Positions 18,715 to 46,620 of a stretch of 64,000 nt of DNA are shown here, one piece after another. How positions within the stretch are numbered: position 1 is the stretch's first letter; each line of letters begins with the position of its first letter. This DNA comes from a virus (Duplodnaviria; Caudoviricetes), in the IMG/VR virus record IMGVR_UViG_3300042483_000388; one strand, given 5' to 3'. Position numbers and translations under genes: made by a program. Below the pieces are notes generated by a model. It was not told the DNA's origin. It saw only the letters and a list, made by a program, of their open reading frames with translations, and made no database searches.

Positions 18715-21171
18715 ATGAAACATTTATTACTTTTATTTTTATTTCCCTTCTTTTTATACTCACAGTATTGTCCTTATTTAGGTCCTGACCAACTTTTACC
18801 TTGTGGTGTAAACTCAACTACATTAACTGCCGATTTAAGTCAGTGTGGACCTGGTGGGCCAAATCCAAATCAAACAACAAACTATGGTGTAACAAATATA
18901 CCTTATGTCGCTCAAACCAATACAGGGACACAAGTCTTTTTAGGTGATGATGCAATATCTCAACCACAAAACATAGGGTTTACCTTTTGTTTTTTTGGAA
19001 ATACATATACACAGTTCTACATTGGATCTAATGGATGGATTGGGTTTTCAGGTGGTCAGCCAGCAACCTTTGCATCAGTTGCAATTCCTAATGGTGGTTT
19101 AAATGTTCCAAAGAATTGTATTATGGGTCCTTGGCAAGACTGGCATCCGGGCATCGGCGGGCAAATCAGATATCAAATTAGTGGATTTGCCCCTTGTCGA
19201 AAATTAACCGTTAGTTGGATTAACGTTCCTATGTATTTGTGTACTAATTTACAAGGTAATTTTCACATTGTCATCTATGAATCAACAAATGTAATTGAAA
19301 ACCACATACAGAACAAACCAAATTGTCCTAATTGGGCTCTTGGGACAGCAGTTCAAGGGATTCATAACCAACCAGGAACTATAGGTATTGCAGTCCCCGG
19401 TAGAAACTCTTCACAATGGTCAACTCAAAACAACTCACATAGGTGGACACCAAGCGGACCTACAGTTCAACCTGTATTAACATGGTATCAAGTAGGTAAT
19501 CCAAATCCAATTGGAACTGGACCTACAATTACAGTTACACCCCCTCTTGTTGGGGCAAACTACACATGTCATTTAGTTTATCCTACTTGTAATGCCGGTT
19601 GGTCAACATGTAACGTAGGTATTGGTAATTTAGGTCCTGATACTGTATTTGTTGCACCAGGGCCACCACAATTACCACCACCAAATTTAGTTCTACAAGA
19701 CCCAAACTGTAATAATGGGTGTAATGGATCAATTACGGTGGTTCCTAATGGAGGAACAGGAGTAACAACTATCTCTTGGAACGGTGGATCAACAAACTTA
19801 ACCTTAAATAACTTATGTAGTGGTAACTATTTGTTTAATTTAGTGGATGCTGCAGGTTGTACTTATAGTGGATCGGCAACTTTACTCAATCCTCCACCAT
19901 TACAATCTCCTCAATTTGTGAATACTAACCCAACTTGCTTTGGTTATTGTGACGGGACATCAACTGTGAACCCAATTGATGGTGTTGCACCATATACATT
20001 CCTTTGGGGTAACAACCAAACCACTCAAACGGCAACAAATCTATGTTCAGGTCAACAAACTGTAACGGTTTATGACCAATATAACTGCCCCGCACAAGGA
20101 ACAACCACATTGATTGACCCACCAATGGTTACAATCAACCAAATCACAGGTTTAGATACGGTTTGTTATAACTCTACAGTCAATCCTTATGGTGTTACAA
20201 GTGTTTTTCCTAACTTAGGGTATGTTTGGACCAACACAATAGGAAATATCACTACAGGACAAGGTACGAACCAAATAAATTTAGATGTTACTGGTGTAAA
20301 TGGGGGTAATTATCCTAACTCACTATCGGTTATTGGTGTAAATCAACTTGGATGTCAGTCATTACCTGAAACTTTTAACCTTGTTGTGTTAAATATTCTT
20401 CCATCAATCGCTCAAGTTGGTCCATTTTGTGAATACGACAACTGTATTAACCTAAATGGGACCCCACAAGGTGGAATTTTTAGTGGATTAAACATTTGGG
20501 GTGGACAATACTGTCCAAATAACGGGTTTATTGGTCTTGATGTTGTGAATTACAACTATATTCAGTCAGGTTGTTTGTTTAATACATCAATAAATGTTCA
20601 AGTATACCCAAGACCAATCATTTCTCCTGTTGTAAACGGTGTTGTTTTTGAAAATACGGAGTATCATGAGATATGTGAGGGGGATACCGTTACCGATATC
20701 TTTGATGCAGTGTCTGCAAGTGGTGGATATAACGAATGGTACTCGTTTGGTGACACAACAATTAGTCAAACCTTAAATATTACTTGGGATCAAGATGGAA
20801 TATTCCAATTTCAAGTGGTTAGATGGGACAATGGATGTGTTTCTAACCCCGAAAACTTCATTGTAACCTTAGAATTGTGTCCAAATGAGATATTTTACAT
20901 ACCAAACGCCTTTACACCTAATGGTGATGAAAGAAATAACACATTTAAACCCATAATTACGTCAGGAGTAGACGTTTTTAACTATGTATTTGTAATATAT
21001 AACCGTTGGGGACAGATAGTATGGGAATCTTATAACGCAAACATGGGTTGGGATGGTAATTATGACGATAAACCATGTCAAGATGGTGTTTATACTTGGA
21101 AATTAAGGTTTAAAACACCTAAAACTGACAAAATAAATGAATTTATAGGTAATTTAACATTAATTAAATAG
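18715..21171 (+). CDS. Secreted T9SS type-B (gliding motility-associated C-terminal domain) protein with SprB-like repeats
   Basis: Signal peptide MKHLLLLFLFPFFLYSQ; SprB-like repeats (PNCNNGCNGSITVVPNGGT, PTCFGYCDGTSTVNPIDGVAPYTFLW); C-terminal FYIPNAFTPNGDERNNTF...IYNRWGQIVW...GWDG...GVY...G.LTLIK. Confidence 0.9.
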   Translation: MKHLLLLFLFPFFLYSQYCPYLGPDQLLPCGVNSTTLTADLSQCGPGGPNPNQTTNYGVTNIPYVAQTNTGTQVFLGDDAISQPQNIGFTFCFFGNTYTQFYIGSNGWIGFSGGQPATFASVAIPNGGLNVPKNCIMGPWQDWHPGIGGQIRYQISGFAPCRKLTVSWINVPMYLCTNLQGNFHIVIYESTNVIENHIQNKPNCPNWALGTAVQGIHNQPGTIGIAVPGRNSSQWSTQNNSHRWTPSGPTVQPVLTWYQVGNPNPIGTGPTITVTPPLVGANYTCHLVYPTCNAGWSTCNVGIGNLGPDTVFVAPGPPQLPPPNLVLQDPNCNNGCNGSITVVPNGGTGVTTISWNGGSTNLTLNNLCSGNYLFNLVDAAGCTYSGSATLLNPPPLQSPQFVNTNPTCFGYCDGTSTVNPIDGVAPYTFLWGNNQTTQTATNLCSGQQTVTVYDQYNCPAQGTTTLIDPPMVTINQITGLDTVCYNSTVNPYGVTSVFPNLGYVWTNTIGNITTGQGTNQINLDVTGVNGGNYPNSLSVIGVNQLGCQSLPETFNLVVLNILPSIAQVGPFCEYDNCINLNGTPQGGIFSGLNIWGGQYCPNNGFIGLDVVNYNYIQSGCLFNTSINVQVYPRPIISPVVNGVVFENTEYHEICEGDTVTDIFDAVSASGGYNEWYSFGDTTISQTLNITWDQDGIFQFQVVRWDNGCVSNPENFIVTLELCPNEIFYIPNAFTPNGDERNNTFKPIITSGVDVFNYVFVIYNRWGQIVWESYNANMGWDGNYDDKPCQDGVYTWKLRFKTPKTDKINEFIGNLTLIK

Positions 21172-31226: not shown

Positions 31227-31231
31227 AATTA

Positions 31232-31305
31232 GGTCCTGTAGCTCAACTGAACAGAGCATTGCCCTTCTAAGGCAACGGTTGAAAGTTTGACTCTTTCCGG
31301 GATCA
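31232..31305 (+). tRNA. trnR: tRNA-Arg(TCT)
   Basis: Acceptor GGTCCTG/CGGGATC; D stem GCTC/GAGC; anticodon arm TTGCC-CTTCTAA-GGCAA; T arm GAAAG-TTTGACT-CTTTC; no encoded CCA. Confidence 0.88.
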
Positions 31306-31319
31306 CAAAAACAAAAACA

Positions 31320-31430
31320 ATGGATGAAATATTAGAATCGATGCATGAAGAGTTTATTAACTCCGAAGAGTATATCGTATTATTACGGAGATTAATAGAC
31401 GAAGAAGAAGAAAGATATTTAACAAAATAA
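31320..31430 (+). CDS. 36-aa acidic peptide
   Basis: Hand translation: MDEILESMHEEFINSEEYIVLLRRLIDEEEERYLTK*. Confidence 0.45.
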   Translation: MDEILESMHEEFINSEEYIVLLRRLIDEEEERYLTK

Positions 31431-31500
31431 GTTGTGTAGCTCAGTTGGTTAGAGCAATCCGATTTCGGATGTGTCGCAGGTTTGAGTCCCGCCACAACTT
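31430..31500 (+). ncRNA. tRNA-like RNA with collapsed (4-nt) anticodon loop
   Basis: Acceptor AGTTGTG/CACAACT; D arm GCTC-AGTTGGTTA-GAGC; ATCCG-ATTT-CGGAT; T arm GCAGG-TTTGAGT-CCCGC. Confidence 0.75.
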
Positions 31501-31569
31501 TTTATTAAAAAGGTATTGAATTTTTTCAATACCTTTTTTTTATCTTGAATTTTTTTGTATCTTTACAGT

Positions 31570-32073
31570 ATGAAAAACGAACTACCATACGAAGCTACAG
31601 GAAATGCAATCAAAGGATATACTGAATCTGCAATTGCTAAAGGTGAAACAAATGACTGTGTTGTAAGAGCATTTGCATCTTGTTTTGACTTACCATATGA
31701 CAAATCTCATAAGTTTGTCAAAGAGAAATTTGGTCGTAAAGATAGAAACGGAACTTATGGAACGGTTTTTAAGATGGGAGAGTTAGCGTCAACTAGATCC
31801 CAAATTAACTATAAAAAAGTTAAACCAATCGGCACACCTAAAACTATTGGTAGTCACAAAATTCACACTTTAGAATATGAGGTAATTGTTAAGGGTTGTA
31901 AGACTATGAGACAAATGACCGTAGGGACTTTCACAAAACAAAACCCTGTTGGGACATTCTTCATACTTGTTTCAAGACATGCATTTACAATCAAAGATGG
32001 TGTTGTGATCGGTAATTTGGAGGACTCAAAAAAACTTAAACGTATTATAAAATCTGCATTCGAGATAAAATAA
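31570..32073 (+). CDS. Conserved phage protein (NDCVVRA...H; possible Cys-protease-like fold)
   Basis: ETNDCVVRAFA...LVSRHAFTIKDG; probable start ATG 31570. Confidence 0.6.
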   Translation: MKNELPYEATGNAIKGYTESAIAKGETNDCVVRAFASCFDLPYDKSHKFVKEKFGRKDRNGTYGTVFKMGELASTRSQINYKKVKPIGTPKTIGSHKIHTLEYEVIVKGCKTMRQMTVGTFTKQNPVGTFFILVSRHAFTIKDGVVIGNLEDSKKLKRIIKSAFEIK

Positions 32074-32095
32074 ATTAAAAATATTTTACAAAGTG

Positions 32096-32127
32096 TTTGG
32101 CAAATCAAAAGTGATTATATATCTTTG
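32096..32127 (+). promoter_or_regulatory. Bacteroidota-type promoter
   Basis: TTTG 32096-32099, 20-nt spacer, TATCTTTG 32120-32127. Confidence 0.75.
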
Positions 32128-32131
32128 TAAT

Positions 32132-32332
32132 ATGGAAATAACAATTAACATACCCGATGGAGTTCTGAATAGATTGAAAGAACTTGAAATTACAGACGAA
32201 AATATTCAAAAAGAAGTTCTAATTGATTTTATAAAAGATTCTTTGGATACAGATTACTTAAACGGTATGTCCGATAAATTCAGAAAATGGACATTAAATA
32301 AAGAAAATATTAAAGTTTATTTGGCAGATTGA
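32132..32332 (+). CDS. Small hypothetical protein
   Basis: Start MEITINIP directly after the promoter. Confidence 0.6.
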   Translation: MEITINIPDGVLNRLKELEITDENIQKEVLIDFIKDSLDTDYLNGMSDKFRKWTLNKENIKVYLAD

Positions 32333-32425
32333 AATAAAATTCATAGATTTGTAAGAGAAACAACGGGGGTAGGAAGTGAGAGGTTGGTGTCCTACTCCCG
32401 TGAAGAAAGAAGAAGTTCATTGAAA
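32320..32425 (+). promoter_or_regulatory. Promoter plus hairpin and boxA-like leader of the tRNA operon
   Basis: TTTG 32320-32323, 20 nt, TAGATTTG 32344-32351; 11-bp hairpin 32364-32400; GTTCATTGAAA 32415-32425. Confidence 0.65.
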
Positions 32426-32433
32426 TTAAAATA

Positions 32434-32526
32434 TTGTGGTGGTAAGAAACGGGAAACTCGTAAAGTGCATTAACCTGTTGACATAAGATGGTGAAACGAG
32501 AGTGTGTGTCAGCTACTTAACTACAA
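32434..32526 (+). ncRNA. Unassigned structured RNA
   Basis: Closing stem TTGTGGT/ACTACAA; hairpin ACGGG-AAA-CTCGT; 9-bp stem GTTGACATA/TGTGTCAGC. Confidence 0.45.
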
Positions 32527-32532
32527 ATAAAT

Positions 32533-32606
32533 GGTGTGTGTAGCTCAATCGGAAGAGTGTCGGTTTGTGGAACCGAAGGTAGTGGGATCGTAACCCACCA
32601 TTCGCC
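32533..32606 (+). tRNA. trnH: tRNA-His(GTG)
   Basis: G-1:C73; anticodon arm TCGGT-TTGTGGA-ACCGA; T arm GTGGG-ATCGTAA-CCCAC. Confidence 0.85.
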
Positions 32607-32618
32607 CAAAAAGCACAC

Positions 32619-32691
32619 ACGTCTGTAGCTCCAACGGTAGAGCATTGGTTTCCAAAACCAAGTGTTGGTGGTTCGAATCCATCCAGGCGTG
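32619..32691 (+). tRNA. trnW: tRNA-Trp(CCA)
   Basis: Acceptor ACGTCTG/CAGGCGT; TTGGT-TTCCAAA-ACCAA; T loop TTCGAAT. Confidence 0.92.
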
Positions 32692-32766
32692 CTAATAAGG
32701 AAGTATATGAGAGTCCTGAATTGTACACAAAATATCCCTATTGACATCTCGGAAAGACGAGGACAT

Positions 32767-32840
32767 AGTTAATTATCTCAGTTGGTTAGAGCGATTCCCT
32801 GATACGGAATAGGTCATTGGTTCGAGTCCAGTATTAACTA
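32767..32840 (+). tRNA. trnI: tRNA-Ile(GAT)
   Basis: Acceptor AGTTAAT/ATTAACT; ATTCC-CTGATAC-GGAAT; T loop TTCGAGT. Confidence 0.9.
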
Positions 32841-32845
32841 CATAT

Positions 32846-32918
32846 CGCGGGATGTGGAAATTGGTCATCCGCTCGGTCTCATAAGCCGAGATTACAGGTT
32901 CGAGCCCTGTTCCCGCAA
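32846..32918 (+). tRNA. trnfM: Initiator-type tRNA-Met(CAT)
   Basis: C1xA72 mismatch (CGCGGGA/TCCCGCA); TCGGT-CTCATAA-GCCGA; only two of the three initiator G-C pairs in the anticodon stem. Confidence 0.85.
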
Positions 32919-32922
32919 CTAA

Positions 32923-33023
32923 GTGTTGTTCCTGTGAGAAGGGAATGGAATAGTCAGGTGGGTATATAAACTTTACAATGGGTTATATTCACATTTGCAC
33001 AACACAGAGGACTTCTCACCCTC
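32923..33023 (+). ncRNA. Unassigned structured RNA with predicted kissing loop
   Basis: P1 GTGTTGT/ACAACAC; P2 TCCT/GGGA with loop GTGAGAA; P3 GTGGGTATA/TATATTCAC; 3' hairpin GAGG/CCTC with loop ACTTCTCAC complementary to the P2 loop. Confidence 0.6.
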
Positions 33024-33027
33024 AAAT

Positions 33028-33097
33028 AGTCAGGGGGCGTGTAGGAGAACGCAACCGATCATAAGGGAGAGAATAGGTTCGAATCCTGTCCTGACTA
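33028..33097 (+). ncRNA. tRNA-like RNA (AGTCAGG shell) with unpaired anticodon arm containing CAT
   Basis: Acceptor AGTCAGG/CCTGACT; D stem GCGT/ACGC; T arm ATAGG-TTCGAAT-CCTGT; anticodon stem cannot form. Confidence 0.7.
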
Positions 33098-33112
33098 CTA
33101 ACAGAAAAGAAT

Positions 33113-33241
33113 ATGAAAAATAAAAGAATGTTAATTAAAGTGGACCTATTAGGTTGTAAAAACATGAAAGAAGCTTGTAGAGTTGTAGATTATCTCAGAG
33201 ATGGTAAAATTAAATTATCCGTTGAAAAAATAAAGAAATGA
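33113..33241 (+). CDS. 42-aa hypothetical peptide
   Basis: Hand translation: MKNKRMLIKVDLLGCKNMKEACRVVDYLRDGKIKLSVEKIKK*; ATGA overlap with the next gene. Confidence 0.5.
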   Translation: MKNKRMLIKVDLLGCKNMKEACRVVDYLRDGKIKLSVEKIKK

Positions 33242-33441
33242 TAAAGTGTGTTGACAGGGGGATATGGACTTGTATTAGTAATTCAGGTGTGTTAAAAAAA
33301 TCGTATGACAATTCTGATGCCGCAATTAGTGCTGCAAAATTAGTTAATAAATACGACCCAAAAGAAACAACAAAGTTAGTTGCGTACAAATGTACACATT
33401 GTCACAAATATCATTTATTAACGGTTAATAAAAAAAATTAA
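33238..33441 (+). CDS. Small putative zinc-binding protein
   Basis: AYKCTHCHKYHL (CxxC..H) plus an N-terminal Cys. Confidence 0.65.
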   Translation: MIKCVDRGIWTCISNSGVLKKSYDNSDAAISAAKLVNKYDPKETTKLVAYKCTHCHKYHLLTVNKKN

Positions 33442-33448
33442 ATAATAT

Positions 33449-33602
33449 AGTCAGGTGGTGGAATGTTAGACACATAGTGACACGCACGGCAACCTTGAAT
33501 AAGTGCACTTTGAAAAGGCAATGCGAATGATGAAGAACACTACCTCACTGTGCGTAGGTAAAATTCAAAGTGTTCATACAGGTTAGAATCCTGTCCTGAC
33601 TA
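33449..33602 (+). ncRNA. tRNA-shell RNA with ~100-nt structured insert replacing the anticodon arm
   Basis: Acceptor AGTCAGG/CCTGACT-A; D-like arm GTGGAATGTTAGACAC; T arm ACAGG-TTAGAAT-CCTGT; internal pairings listed under findings. Confidence 0.72.
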
Positions 33603-33674
33603 CAAAGGGGTAGAATATTAGTAAGGGCCTTTCCTGAAAGATGGCTAGCTAGGCCCGTGTCTACCCTTATTTTT

Positions 33675-33746
33675 GGTCCCATCGACTATCGGTTAGGTCG
33701 TCAGGTTTTCATCCTGGAAAGTCGGGTTCGATTCCCGGTGGGACTA
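33675..33746 (+). tRNA. trnE: tRNA-Glu(TTC)
   Basis: Acceptor GGTCCCA/TGGGACT; TCAGG-TTTTCAT-CCTGG; T loop TTCGATT. Confidence 0.92.
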
Positions 33747-33826
33747 CTATAGCTAACCAAGCTTTACTACGATACGGGTTCATACCTGTGGGTTAGGGGT
33801 GACGATCAGGAAAGACTGATAAAGTT

Positions 33827-33899
33827 GGTCCCGTGGTTGAATGGTTACAATTCCACCCTGTCACGGTGCGAGATACGGGTTCGAATCCCGTCGGGACCG
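33827..33899 (+). tRNA. trnD: tRNA-Asp(GTC)
   Basis: Acceptor GGTCCCG/CGGGACC; CACC-CTGTCAC-GGTG; T arm ACGGG-TTCGAAT-CCCGT. Confidence 0.92.
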
Positions 33900-33925
33900 C
33901 AAAACATTTTAAAAAAATAACTATT

Positions 33926-37554: not shown

Positions 37555-38425
37555 AGATATTATCCGTTCAGGATTAGGTTAAGAACCTTCGGGTTTAAGA
37601 GTGAAACTGATAAAGATATTGGGCCGTGTATAGTCCATAAAATAAACTACGAAAGTAGGATAAAGTGAATCCACAAGTGTAACGGGTTTGCGTCTTAATA
37701 GTCTTCGGAATATTGAGGTCGAGTACACAGGCGAGATACCATAAGATCTTTAGTACCGAGGCCAACGGTGTAGGGAAAGTGATTTTATGACGAGGTGATG
37801 TGGGTCATCTTGTTGAGGAGGGAACTCCAATAGGAATAACTCGTAGGGACGTTGCAAGAATCAATATTTCCAATGTTGTTATTGCGGGTTCCAGTATCAA
37901 AGGATACTTAAAACCGAAAGGTATGTTAATGTACGGGTGGTGCCGTTATTAACCTTAACCGACTTCTACCAAGGGGTTAGTTTCGAAGTAGTCTTGAAAT
38001 ATTGAAATGGGGACATTTCACGGAGTTGTTTGGTATTTTGTTATTCAAAAGATAATGAAGCTTAAGACGGACCACAACTTTGATCAATCCACAACACAAA
38101 AACTTTTATAGAAAAGGTAAAACTTATAACTAAAAAGCAAAAGTGTTCGTCACGATATAACGGAAGTTACCCACCTATTCACTGGCTGTCAGTGGAACGT
38201 GATAACCGCAAGTTTGACCGTATTTTTATGAAAAATCTCTAGGTCGTCGAAGACCGAACCAGGACGCAATCTTGGGGAGACAGGAGTAGTAAGAGAGTAG
38301 TTGTATCGTCAAGGGGTGATTGGTCTAACCAATCGGTAATGAGTGTTACGGGACAAAATCCTGTGGATAAGAGTAGAACCAATAATGACTCGAAAGACAC
38401 TTACAAAAACTGTAATCTCAGGTTT
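37555..38425 (+). ncRNA. Large (~870 nt) highly structured non-coding RNA, GOLLD-like candidate
   Basis: No ORF >=60 aa; visibly G/C-richer than flanks; many tetraloop-capped hairpins (AACC-TTCG-GGTT 37584, CTAC-GAAA-GTAG 37647, AGTATC-AAAG-GATACT 37893, ACC-GAAA-GGT 37913, TGAAATG-GGGA-CATTTCA 38003, CCAGGA-CGCAA-TCTTGG 38259, GATTGGT-CTA-ACCAATC 38318). Family assignment rests on size and context only; boundaries approximate. Confidence 0.7.
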
Positions 38426-38731: not shown

Positions 38732-38767
38732 TAAAAAAACCCCACCTGTGGAGATGGGGTAATATAA

Positions 38768-39166
38768 GGTGGAGGTGCGGAGGCTCGAACTCCGGTCCAT
38801 AATATCCTGTCAGAGAAGGACTACACGTTTAGGTCAAGGTTTGTCATACCTTCCGAAATATCTGAGTTCTCACACCACTCAGCGACGGTGGTAGTTCTTA
38901 CGGGGAACCACGCCCGTTTTGTCCTCTTTTAGAGTGAAAACCAACTCATCAACGACTTCTGTTGCTAGGTTATCTGTCTGACCGACCCCCCGTTTCCGTA
39001 AACCTCTTAGGCTACAGTAACTTCAGAACCTCTTAGTAAACCAAGAGTTTCCATTTTCGATAAAACGTCGCCGATTGTTTTTGTGAATCAGTTTTTAAGG
39101 AGATTAATTCAGTCTCCACGTGCCCTTTGTCTTCAGCCAATACCTGTCAAATCCAAAAACACCCCC
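38768..39166 (-). ncRNA. ssrA: tmRNA (one-piece)
   Basis: 5' GGGGGTGTTTTTGGATTTGACAGG; 3' GGACCGGAGTTCGAGCCTCCGCACCTCCACC; acceptor with G3-U70 and A73; tag reading frame 39072-39007 GDVLSKMETLGLLRGSEVTVA*. Confidence 0.93.
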
Positions 39167-45882: not shown

Positions 45883-46620
45883 ATGGATACTAAAAAACTA
45901 ATAAAAAGTTTTGATACTCAAGATGAATTAAATCCTAAGATTTGGCAATTACCAAATGGTCAGGATTATAAAATGAAGAATGAGATTAGGGAGAGGTTAT
46001 TAGAAATTGCTTACCAATTTATAGATTATTTGGGTGTTGATATTGTTGTAACCGATATTGTTCTTACGGGATCGTTAGCAAATTATAATTGGTCAAAGTA
46101 TTCCGATTTTGATGTTCATATAATTACCAATTTCCAACAATACCCACCAGAACAATTAGAGCTCTATAAGGAATTATTTATGTTAAAGAAAGCGCTATTC
46201 AATAAAAACTACGACATTAAACTTTTTGGTTATGAGGTTGAGTTATATGTTGAGAATGAATCTGAAGCTCATTTCTCAAGTGGTGTTTATTCCTTATTAT
46301 TTAATGAGTGGGCGATGAAACCAAAAAAAGAAAAAATATCAATTGATAAACCTACCATTGAAAGGAAGGCTAAACAATGGATGGGGATTATTGATGGTGT
46401 ATTAGAGAACATTGAAGATGAAGATATTGAGGACGCTAAGGACCTTATTGAGAAATATAAAGAAAAACTTAGGAAGTTTAGATCTTGTGGTTTAGAAAAA
46501 AATGGTGAGTATTCTTCAGAAAATCTAGTATTTAAAATCTTAAGAAGAAATGGATATCTTGAAAAACTAAGAGGTGCAACACATAAAATATTGGAAAAAG
46601 GTTTATCAATGAACCAATAA
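45883..46620 (+). CDS. Pol-beta-superfamily nucleotidyltransferase
   Basis: DIVLTGSLANYNWSKYSDFDVHI (GS-x8-D-x-D) and third acidic strand YEVELYVE. Confidence 0.8.
   Translation: MDTKKLIKSFDTQDELNPKIWQLPNGQDYKMKNEIRERLLEIAYQFIDYLGVDIVVTDIVLTGSLANYNWSKYSDFDVHIITNFQQYPPEQLELYKELFMLKKALFNKNYDIKLFGYEVELYVENESEAHFSSGVYSLLFNEWAMKPKKEKISIDKPTIERKAKQWMGIIDGVLENIEDEDIEDAKDLIEKYKEKLRKFRSCGLEKNGEYSSENLVFKILRRNGYLEKLRGATHKILEKGLSMNQ

Follow-up and report, generated by a model that had tools for sequence, protein, structure and literature searches.

What is a tRNA-shaped gene without an anticodon doing in the genome of a large phage? The question arises at positions 31430-31500 of the window, i.e. the whole 64,000-nucleotide stretch of phage DNA analysed here, where a first-pass annotation had described a tRNA-like RNA with a cleanly deleted anticodon. 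The usual explanations for tRNA genes in phages are codon supply and the replacement of tRNAs that have been cut by host defences. A tRNA that is selected for its shape and reads no codon fits neither explanation, and points to a use of the tRNA body during infection. The features of the locus are as follows.

31232-31306, plus strand: tRNA-Arg(UCU), found by ARAGORN and Rfam; first gene of the apparent transcription unit.
31320-31430, plus strand: small acidic ORF of 36 amino acids with the motif H-x-E-F-I-N-S-E; tblastn homologues in most related loci.
31430-31500, plus strand: tRNA-shaped RNA gene of 71 nt including the discriminator U; cloverleaf complete except for a 14-nt anticodon-arm stub.
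31457-31470, plus strand: the anticodon-arm stub, ATCCG-ATTT-CGGAT, read from the sequence; 5 bp and a 4-nt loop.
31476-31492, plus strand: T arm of the tRNA-like gene; stem GCAGG/CCCGC, T loop TTTGAGT (U56), non-Watson-Crick pair 51.63 (A.C).
31507-31545, plus strand: intrinsic terminator (hairpin and T run) from the terminator scan, 7 nt past the discriminator.
31570-32073, plus strand: downstream gene of 167 amino acids (phrog_3754), the anchor for finding related loci.

As read from the sequence, the acceptor stem of the tRNA-like gene pairs AGTTGTG at 31430-31436 with CACAACT at 31493-31499 (7/7 Watson-Crick). U8 and A9 follow the acceptor strand, and A26 follows a D arm with the stem GCTC/GAGC and the D loop AGTTGGTTA. 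The stub comes next (ATCCG at 31457-31461, loop ATTT at 31462-31465 and CGGAT at 31466-31470), then the 5-nt variable loop GTGTC, the T arm and the discriminator T (U) at 31500. The nucleotides of the tertiary interactions, namely U8, A14, G15/C48, G18 G19 and T54-A58, are all present, and the cloverleaf, at -19.6 kcal/mol, lies no more than 0.3 kcal/mol from the unconstrained minimum. The Rfam tRNA model (RF00005) gives 31430-31500 a score of 47.4 bits, the gathering score being 29 and E, taken over the whole window, 5e-7; in its alignment the anticodon loop is short by three positions and one T-stem pair, A51.C63, is non-standard. The tRNA-like character of this RNA is thus borne out by the Rfam score, by the acceptor pairing and by the standard D arm. 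The "intact T arm" of the first-pass annotation needs a correction, since the T arm and T loop are there but pair 51.63 is an A.C mismatch. ARAGORN called seven ordinary tRNAs in the window and did not call this gene. The combination of A1-U72 with U73 is unusual among the tRNAs of these phages.

In a functional decoder, a 5-bp anticodon stem bears a 7-nt loop in which U33 precedes the anticodon (34-36) and a purine occupies position 37. The window RNA has a 14-nt stub in place of the standard 17-nt arm, and its loop is the 4-nt ATTT. No anticodon can be displayed by so short a loop on a stem of 5 bp, so the window RNA cannot decode; that no codon can be read had been proposed from this arm, and both the sequence and the Rfam alignment confirm it.

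The most trivial source of such an arm would be a deletion introduced by assembly or sequencing into an otherwise normal tRNA gene, for which the 3-nt shortfall itself, and nothing else, speaks. A locus search anchored on the downstream protein fetched 80 related IMG/VR loci with 59-74% protein identity, about 20 of which carry a homologue of the tRNA-like element. A covariance model built from 12 homologues was then used together with pattern scans to extend the family, giving copies in 33 IMG/VR contigs, in 76 metagenome contigs, mostly from lakes, and in one short contig that was binned with a Saccharibacteria MAG and is probably phage DNA. Our own model, R1, gives the window element 93 bits. 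Forty-seven distinct sequences were obtained from the IMG/VR and freshwater metagenome contigs, so that the search for recurring anticodon-less versions suggested by the first-pass annotation shows the element not to be unique. Eight other fetched loci, drawn from separate IMG/VR and metagenome records, have this 14-nt arm with a final C in place of T, and no family member has a 17-nt arm bearing a normal loop. The recurrence of this arm in separate records excludes an assembly error for practical purposes, and we regard the probability that remains for a deletion artefact as negligible. An exact-pattern scan of IMG/VR with the window's own arm stems and a free loop found nothing, since C, not T, closes the arm in the other copies of this variant. 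No close relative of the window RNA was found in cultured phage genomes, the family is absent from Rfam as a separate class, and a literature search of incomplete coverage found no published phage tRNA that is conserved with a stub anticodon arm.

The anticodon arms are abnormal in all 47 sequences, with lengths of 13-18 nt. Their shared part consists of A27.C43 (A-U in the window) followed by U-A, C-G and C-G, i.e. ATCC/GGA(Y); position 27.43 is unpaired in 42 of the 47 members. Beyond the three kept stem pairs, the loop measures 4-10 nt and exists in about 27 versions, among them GATTTC, ATCAC, ATTTAT, AAATCA, CCACAA, CTCAGT and TATTTAAACA as examples of the loop region. To speak of a cleanly deleted anticodon was therefore an overstatement, as the relatives carry a stub of variable length rather than a clean 3-nt excision. 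A canonical loop (7 nt, U33, purine 37) is found in none of the 47, and the sole 17-nt arm has a loop made only of A.

These loops bear on the notion of an unusual decoding tRNA, either a stop-codon suppressor or a short-stem type whose 4-bp anticodon stem alters decoding. The unpaired 27.43 resembles tRNAs with a 4-bp anticodon stem (PMC13092985), a few relatives (L025 and L026) combine a 4-bp stem with a 7-nt loop, and many family loops contain TTA, CTA or TCA. However, these triplets occur at inconsistent loop positions, lack U33 and R37, and are expected often in AT-rich loops, while the 4-nt window loop contains none of them. The genome does not appear to call for such a decoder either: the largest window ORFs hardly change when TGA is translated as sense, and a few become longer when TAG or TAA is, as chance would bring about in a genome of 32% GC, so that there is no clear recoding signal. 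We consider a decoding role very improbable.

Attempts to trace the tRNA from which the family arose gave no parent. The two halves of the family members were compared with a set of 574 distinct phage tRNAs; top rank went to Asn, Ile, His or Arg tRNAs depending on the member, and to none of them consistently. tRNA-Trp genes occupy the equivalent slot in other relatives but are not clearly related to the family. The acceptor start NGTC was rejected as a special mark, being common in ordinary tRNAs of these phages.

Whether the RNA is a functionless remnant was addressed through the pattern of change in the family. In the acceptor stem of the 47 sequences, double-sided changes are seen at all seven pairs and 99.7% of the cells are paired; the D stem is invariant. 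The covariation score was matched by none of 500 shuffles and by no slid register, and RNAalifold independently returned three helices, those of the acceptor, the D arm and the three-pair stub. The nucleotides of the tertiary interactions are invariant or nearly so across the family, with position 56 being U instead of C in the window clade. Taking as the body everything except the loop, and as flanks 60 nt, mean identity is 82% for the body vs. 56-58% for the flanks, and in 12 independent close pairs the body changes by 2.0% per site vs. 6.0% for the flanks (p 2e-6). The body of the window element is 98.4% identical to that of L055, although identity in the adjacent gene is only 67% at the DNA level and 59% at the protein level. 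Such high identity between phages may in part result from recombination inside the tRNA island. The gene is present as a single copy in each of four phage contigs of 214-292 kb, and one of these (281 kb, 96% complete) keeps it despite having only about five tRNA-model matches.

A decaying tRNA pseudogene that is carried along in a recombining tRNA island would account for the missing anticodon, for the mismatches in the T stem and at pair 27.43, and for the rejection of the element by ARAGORN. It is difficult to reconcile with compensatory changes at every acceptor pair, with a body that evolves three times more slowly than its flanks, with single-copy retention in a 281-kb phage that has few other tRNA-model matches, and with 47 distinct variants none of which is further broken. 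Relatives with broken acceptor or D stems are not frequent, and widespread loss among close relatives with nothing in its place was not seen, which also speaks against decay. A pseudogene is thus improbable. The first-pass annotation had likewise argued for a non-decoding mimic over simple decay, and this is upheld by the recurrent family, the compensatory acceptor changes, the conservation of the body above that of the flanks and the lack of any canonical loop. The sequence comparisons strongly suggest that selection holds the acceptor stem, the D arm, the variable loop, the T loop and the top three anticodon-stem pairs across the family. The family to which the window RNA belongs is a kind of tRNA-like non-coding RNA that is real, recurrent and under selection, and the gene itself is very probably both selected and non-decoding.

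The loop behaves differently from the body. In the same 12 close pairs it changes by 15.6% per site vs. 6.0% for the flanks (p 0.001). L233, L154 and L143 have near-identical contexts and wholly different loops, ATTTTT, CCACAA and CTCAGT, respectively: L233 and L154 differ at 4 sites in the 210 flank positions compared, and the upstream flanks of L233 and L143 are about 98% identical. Either allele exchange or a local hot spot could explain the replacement of whole loops. Faster-than-neutral evolution of the loop was rejected as an interpretation, the signal leaning largely on the swaps in these three loci; since allele exchange by recombination could yield such swaps, positive selection is not claimed.

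The position of the gene raises the question of whether it acts in cis. The local order is tRNA-Arg(UCU), small ORF, tRNA-like gene and terminator, and the succession of tRNA-Arg(UCU) and small ORF recurs in relatives. The small ORF (36-41 amino acids, H-x-E-F-I-N-S-E-D/E-Y) is kept in nearly all of the 80 related loci, usually right after tRNA-Arg(UCU); its homologues show synonymous changes in tblastn, and it has no Pfam or PHROG family match. It is probably co-transcribed with the tRNA-like gene. In the window, the TAA stop of the ORF overlaps base 1 of the tRNA-like gene, so that the stop codon would lose its final base if RNase P cut there. Hairpins of differing sequence, or a T run, come after most relatives of the tRNA-like gene, and the gene downstream of the terminator has a TAnnTTTG-type promoter motif of its own, TATCTTTA. 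Obligate pairing of the RNA with the small ORF was discarded, as the ORF is conserved with or without the tRNA-like gene and one RNA clade is located elsewhere. An 88-amino acid ORF on the minus strand (31229-31495), which has no family match and overlaps two RNA genes, was taken as spurious.

Two further observations concern tRNA-Arg(UCU). The window copy (31232-31306) scores 60 bits, yet its elbow is unusual for a tRNA: G18 G19 are missing from the D loop, AACTGAACA, and the T loop, TTTGACT, carries U56. In one relative, L052:2363-2465, the TCT anticodon of a 103-nt tRNA-Arg(UCU)-like gene is directly followed by some 29 inserted nt, which may be an intervening sequence.

The arrangement of the unit is what would be expected of a cis-acting processing or 3'-end module, in which the tRNA shape recruits RNase P and RNase Z, frees tRNA-Arg and the small-ORF mRNA from the terminator, and leaves the tRNA-like RNA as a by-product, in the manner of plant-mitochondrial t-elements and of mascRNA. 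The element lies right behind the conserved ORF in most relatives, with the terminator or T run, always directly after it, closing the unit. The acceptor helix, the D/T elbow and the core are the parts used by RNase P, RNase Z, the CCA-adding enzyme and shape-reading partners. The constrained acceptor, T arm and D/T elbow are what the three enzymes read, and the anticodon arm that they ignore is left free; the conservation pattern of the family is expected equally from a purely cis-acting RNase P/Z signal. On the other hand, the same small ORF occurs without a downstream tRNA-like element in many related loci, in one clade the element sits after another RNA gene and not after the ORF, and the tRNA-grade conservation, which extends to the D arm, the variable loop and the upper anticodon stem, exceeds what one would expect a cleavage signal to require. 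We therefore regard a purely cis-acting module as the main rival reading, possible but doubtful.

The explanation that we prefer, tentatively and with somewhat less than even confidence, is that the RNA is a translation-inert mimic of the tRNA body, which matures as tRNAs do and, in trans, engages a factor recognising the shape of tRNAs or their acceptor end. According to this explanation, the RNA would be transcribed as the last gene of the unit that starts with tRNA-Arg(UCU) and ends at the terminator, and would be excised and finished by RNase P, RNase Z and the host CCA-adding enzyme. No tRNA of the island encodes CCA, and no class II CCA-adding enzyme was found in the four large related contigs, so the host enzyme would have to complete the RNA.

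The mature mimic would stay out of translation in two ways, through the absence of an anticodon and through a T stem weakened at the pairs that set EF-Tu affinity. These pairs are 49-65, 50-64 and 51-63, and the T-stem pairs reportedly tune EF-Tu binding in Uhlenbeck's work. Watson-Crick pairing is lacking at 51.63 in 46 of the 47 members and at 50.64 in 26, which could constitute a second barrier to translation; the mismatches could equally be decay that is merely tolerated. The factor occupied by the look-alike would be one that recognises a tRNA by its shape or acceptor end and not by its anticodon. Candidate partners are a toxin of the host acting on tRNA ends by modification or cleavage, or else a protein that senses or processes tRNAs. 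RelA had been put forward in the first-pass annotation, and its modulation by the tRNA-like RNA is a possible role. As for phage-encoded partners, homologues of FemAB and of RelA/SpoT are absent from the four large related contigs.

The mismatch at the EF-Tu affinity site, the intact acceptor end and L-shape core, and the predominance of U as discriminator (37 of the 47 members) also suit an amino-acid carrier for a non-ribosomal reaction, i.e. an RNA that is charged by a synthetase ignoring the anticodon and whose T stem keeps it away from EF-Tu. Such a carrier has a precedent in the cell-wall tRNA-Gly species of Staphylococcus, and the known identity sets that do not depend on the anticodon are those of Ala, Ser, Leu and His. 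The family has no G3.U70, long variable arm or G-1, so that all four sets are absent, and it has no invariant acceptor pair or discriminator. Charging looks unlikely given that no anticodon-independent identity mark is present; together with the lack of a FemAB-type transferase in the four related genomes, this makes a carrier quite improbable.

A more specific version of the preferred mimic is a dedicated decoy of large Bacteroidota phages, with a full tRNA body, an anticodon deliberately removed and weakened EF-Tu binding, that blocks a host factor attacking or sensing the tRNA body or the CCA end. We consider this version speculative and, as it stands, unlikely. If it were true, a ribosome-inert RNA could be overproduced without disturbing decoding, and the fast turnover of the loop would mirror an arms race with the targeted factor. 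The kind of decoy that was proposed initially, one immune to anticodon nucleases, is mechanistically weak as a role for this RNA. Such enzymes mostly recognise the anticodon stem-loop, the very part that the RNA lacks. One nuclease, Cas13b6, comes from a CRISPR type that is common among Bacteroidota. It cleaves isolated anticodon stem-loops (PMC13692257).

The genome around the locus is that of a T4-like phage, with a Gp23 capsid protein, a Gp20 portal, a T4-type terminase and a prohead protease, and related contigs that reach 214-292 kb indicate a jumbo phage. The tRNA island spans 31232-33900 and is followed by GOLLD RNA and a phage tmRNA; these lie a few kb downstream of the island, at 38021-38424 (plus strand, 287 bits) and 38767-39166 (minus strand, 97 bits), respectively. 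A gene at 45883-46620 (plus strand) encodes 245 amino acids with a weak match to a nucleotidyltransferase domain of the Pol-beta type (PF01909, E 1e-5; phrog_36119), a possible RNA-end-modifying enzyme. Three observations point to Bacteroidota as hosts. An 818-amino acid protein encoded at 18715-21171 (plus strand) contains SprB repeats, a PKD-like domain and a CHU_C type IX secretion sorting signal, a Bacteroidota-specific export tag found here on a phage gene. TAnnTTTG-type motifs, which we take to be Bacteroidota-type promoters, stand before genes in the window. Finally, one window tRNA has 96% identity to a counterpart in Flavobacterium phages.

The same island encodes two more tRNA-shaped RNAs without a decoding arm, at 33028-33097 and 33449-33604 (both plus strand). 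They have a common acceptor, AGTCAGG/CCTGACT, and a normal T arm, and one of them is about 155 nt long with a large insert. This long RNA (33449-33604) is 94-99% identical in seven related loci, and its 3' module of T arm and acceptor recurs many times per locus. Both RNAs resemble the 31430-31500 family in the T arm ACAGG-TTnGAAT-CCnGT, in the absence of a decoding arm and in their conservation in relatives. They differ in that their tRNA middle is replaced by other or much larger inserts, whereas the 31430-31500 family keeps the D arm and core and has only the stub. A further oddity is a tandem 84-nt repeat, seen at L201:92-381 and in L199, L203 and L204 (Ignavibacteria and Bacteroidetes MAG contigs) and also in L231, L276, L283 and L302. 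Its unit starts as a look-alike of a tRNA 5' half, with GGACAGG, a standard D arm, the GC-rich hairpin ATCCCG-loop-CGGGAT and GTGTC, and has no T arm or acceptor partner; at least four copies stand in a row in L201.

The findings suggest that these phages encode a set of anticodon-less tRNA-shaped RNAs. The family at 31430-31500 is abundant in freshwater metagenomes, and it goes unannotated since Rfam has no separate class for it and ARAGORN skips the window copy.

Compared with elongator tRNAs (RF00005), the window RNA has the 7-bp acceptor, the 4-bp D stem, G18 G19, U8-A14, G15-C48, the T loop and the 5-nt variable loop; it differs by lacking the 7-nt anticodon loop, U33 and R37 and by its non-Watson-Crick 51.63. 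The tRNA-like domain of tmRNA is a poorer match: its G3.U70 is absent from the family, where pair 3-70 is U-A, C-G or U.G and never G.U, tmRNA has an attached mRNA-like domain while the window RNA comprises only 71 nt, and the phage tmRNA sits elsewhere, at 38767-39166 (minus strand).

Among RNAs with a tRNA-like fold and a reduced, poorly conserved anticodon arm are mascRNA, from the 3' end of MALAT1, and the t-elements of plant mitochondria, which are recognised by tRNA-processing enzymes. The context of the window element, last before the terminator and behind a small ORF, is similar to theirs. They are eukaryotic or organellar and mainly serve as cleavage signals, whereas the window element is a separately conserved phage gene. 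In Bacillus cereus, the pseudo-tRNA tRNA-Other retains a Trp anticodon and is used in T-box regulation, in contrast to the window RNA, which has no anticodon. Bacteroidota, the likely hosts, are not known to use T-boxes. tRNA-Other is poorly charged, stays off polysomes and acts outside translation (PMC3399842).

Two comparisons concern the arm and the genomic position. tRNAs with a 4-bp anticodon stem have one terminal stem pair open but keep a normal 7-nt loop with the anticodon at positions 33-37 (PMC13092985), unlike the family, whose loops are non-canonical and whose window member has A-U at 27-43 and a 4-nt loop. RNAC and RNAD of phage T4 (species 1 and 2 stable RNAs) are small RNAs from a tRNA cluster whose role is unknown (PMC3014915). 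Stable RNAs of this type are matured by tRNA-processing enzymes. The window RNA shares with them the nature of a non-decoding small RNA and a location within the tRNA cluster of a T4-type phage. It is set apart by description: RNAC and RNAD are 119-139 nt long and are not full cloverleaves, while the window RNA, with 71 nt, has every arm except a working anticodon loop.

The closest likeness in a cultured phage is to the tRNA-Undet genes of the Tenacibaculum jumbo phage pT24 (LC168164.1), which infects Flavobacteriaceae. The two copies, at L228:1500-1578 and 1867-1945, score 59-61 bits as tRNAs, with the loop TATATTA, and next to them lie a CUA suppressor tRNA and long RNAs that end in a T arm plus acceptor. 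They have a similar acceptor (GGTTGTA/TACAACC) and T arm and are about 73% identical to the window RNA; their anticodon arm is lengthened (8-bp stem, 23 nt) instead of shortened. A cultured relative with similar odd genes makes the question of what phages do with a tRNA body testable at the bench.
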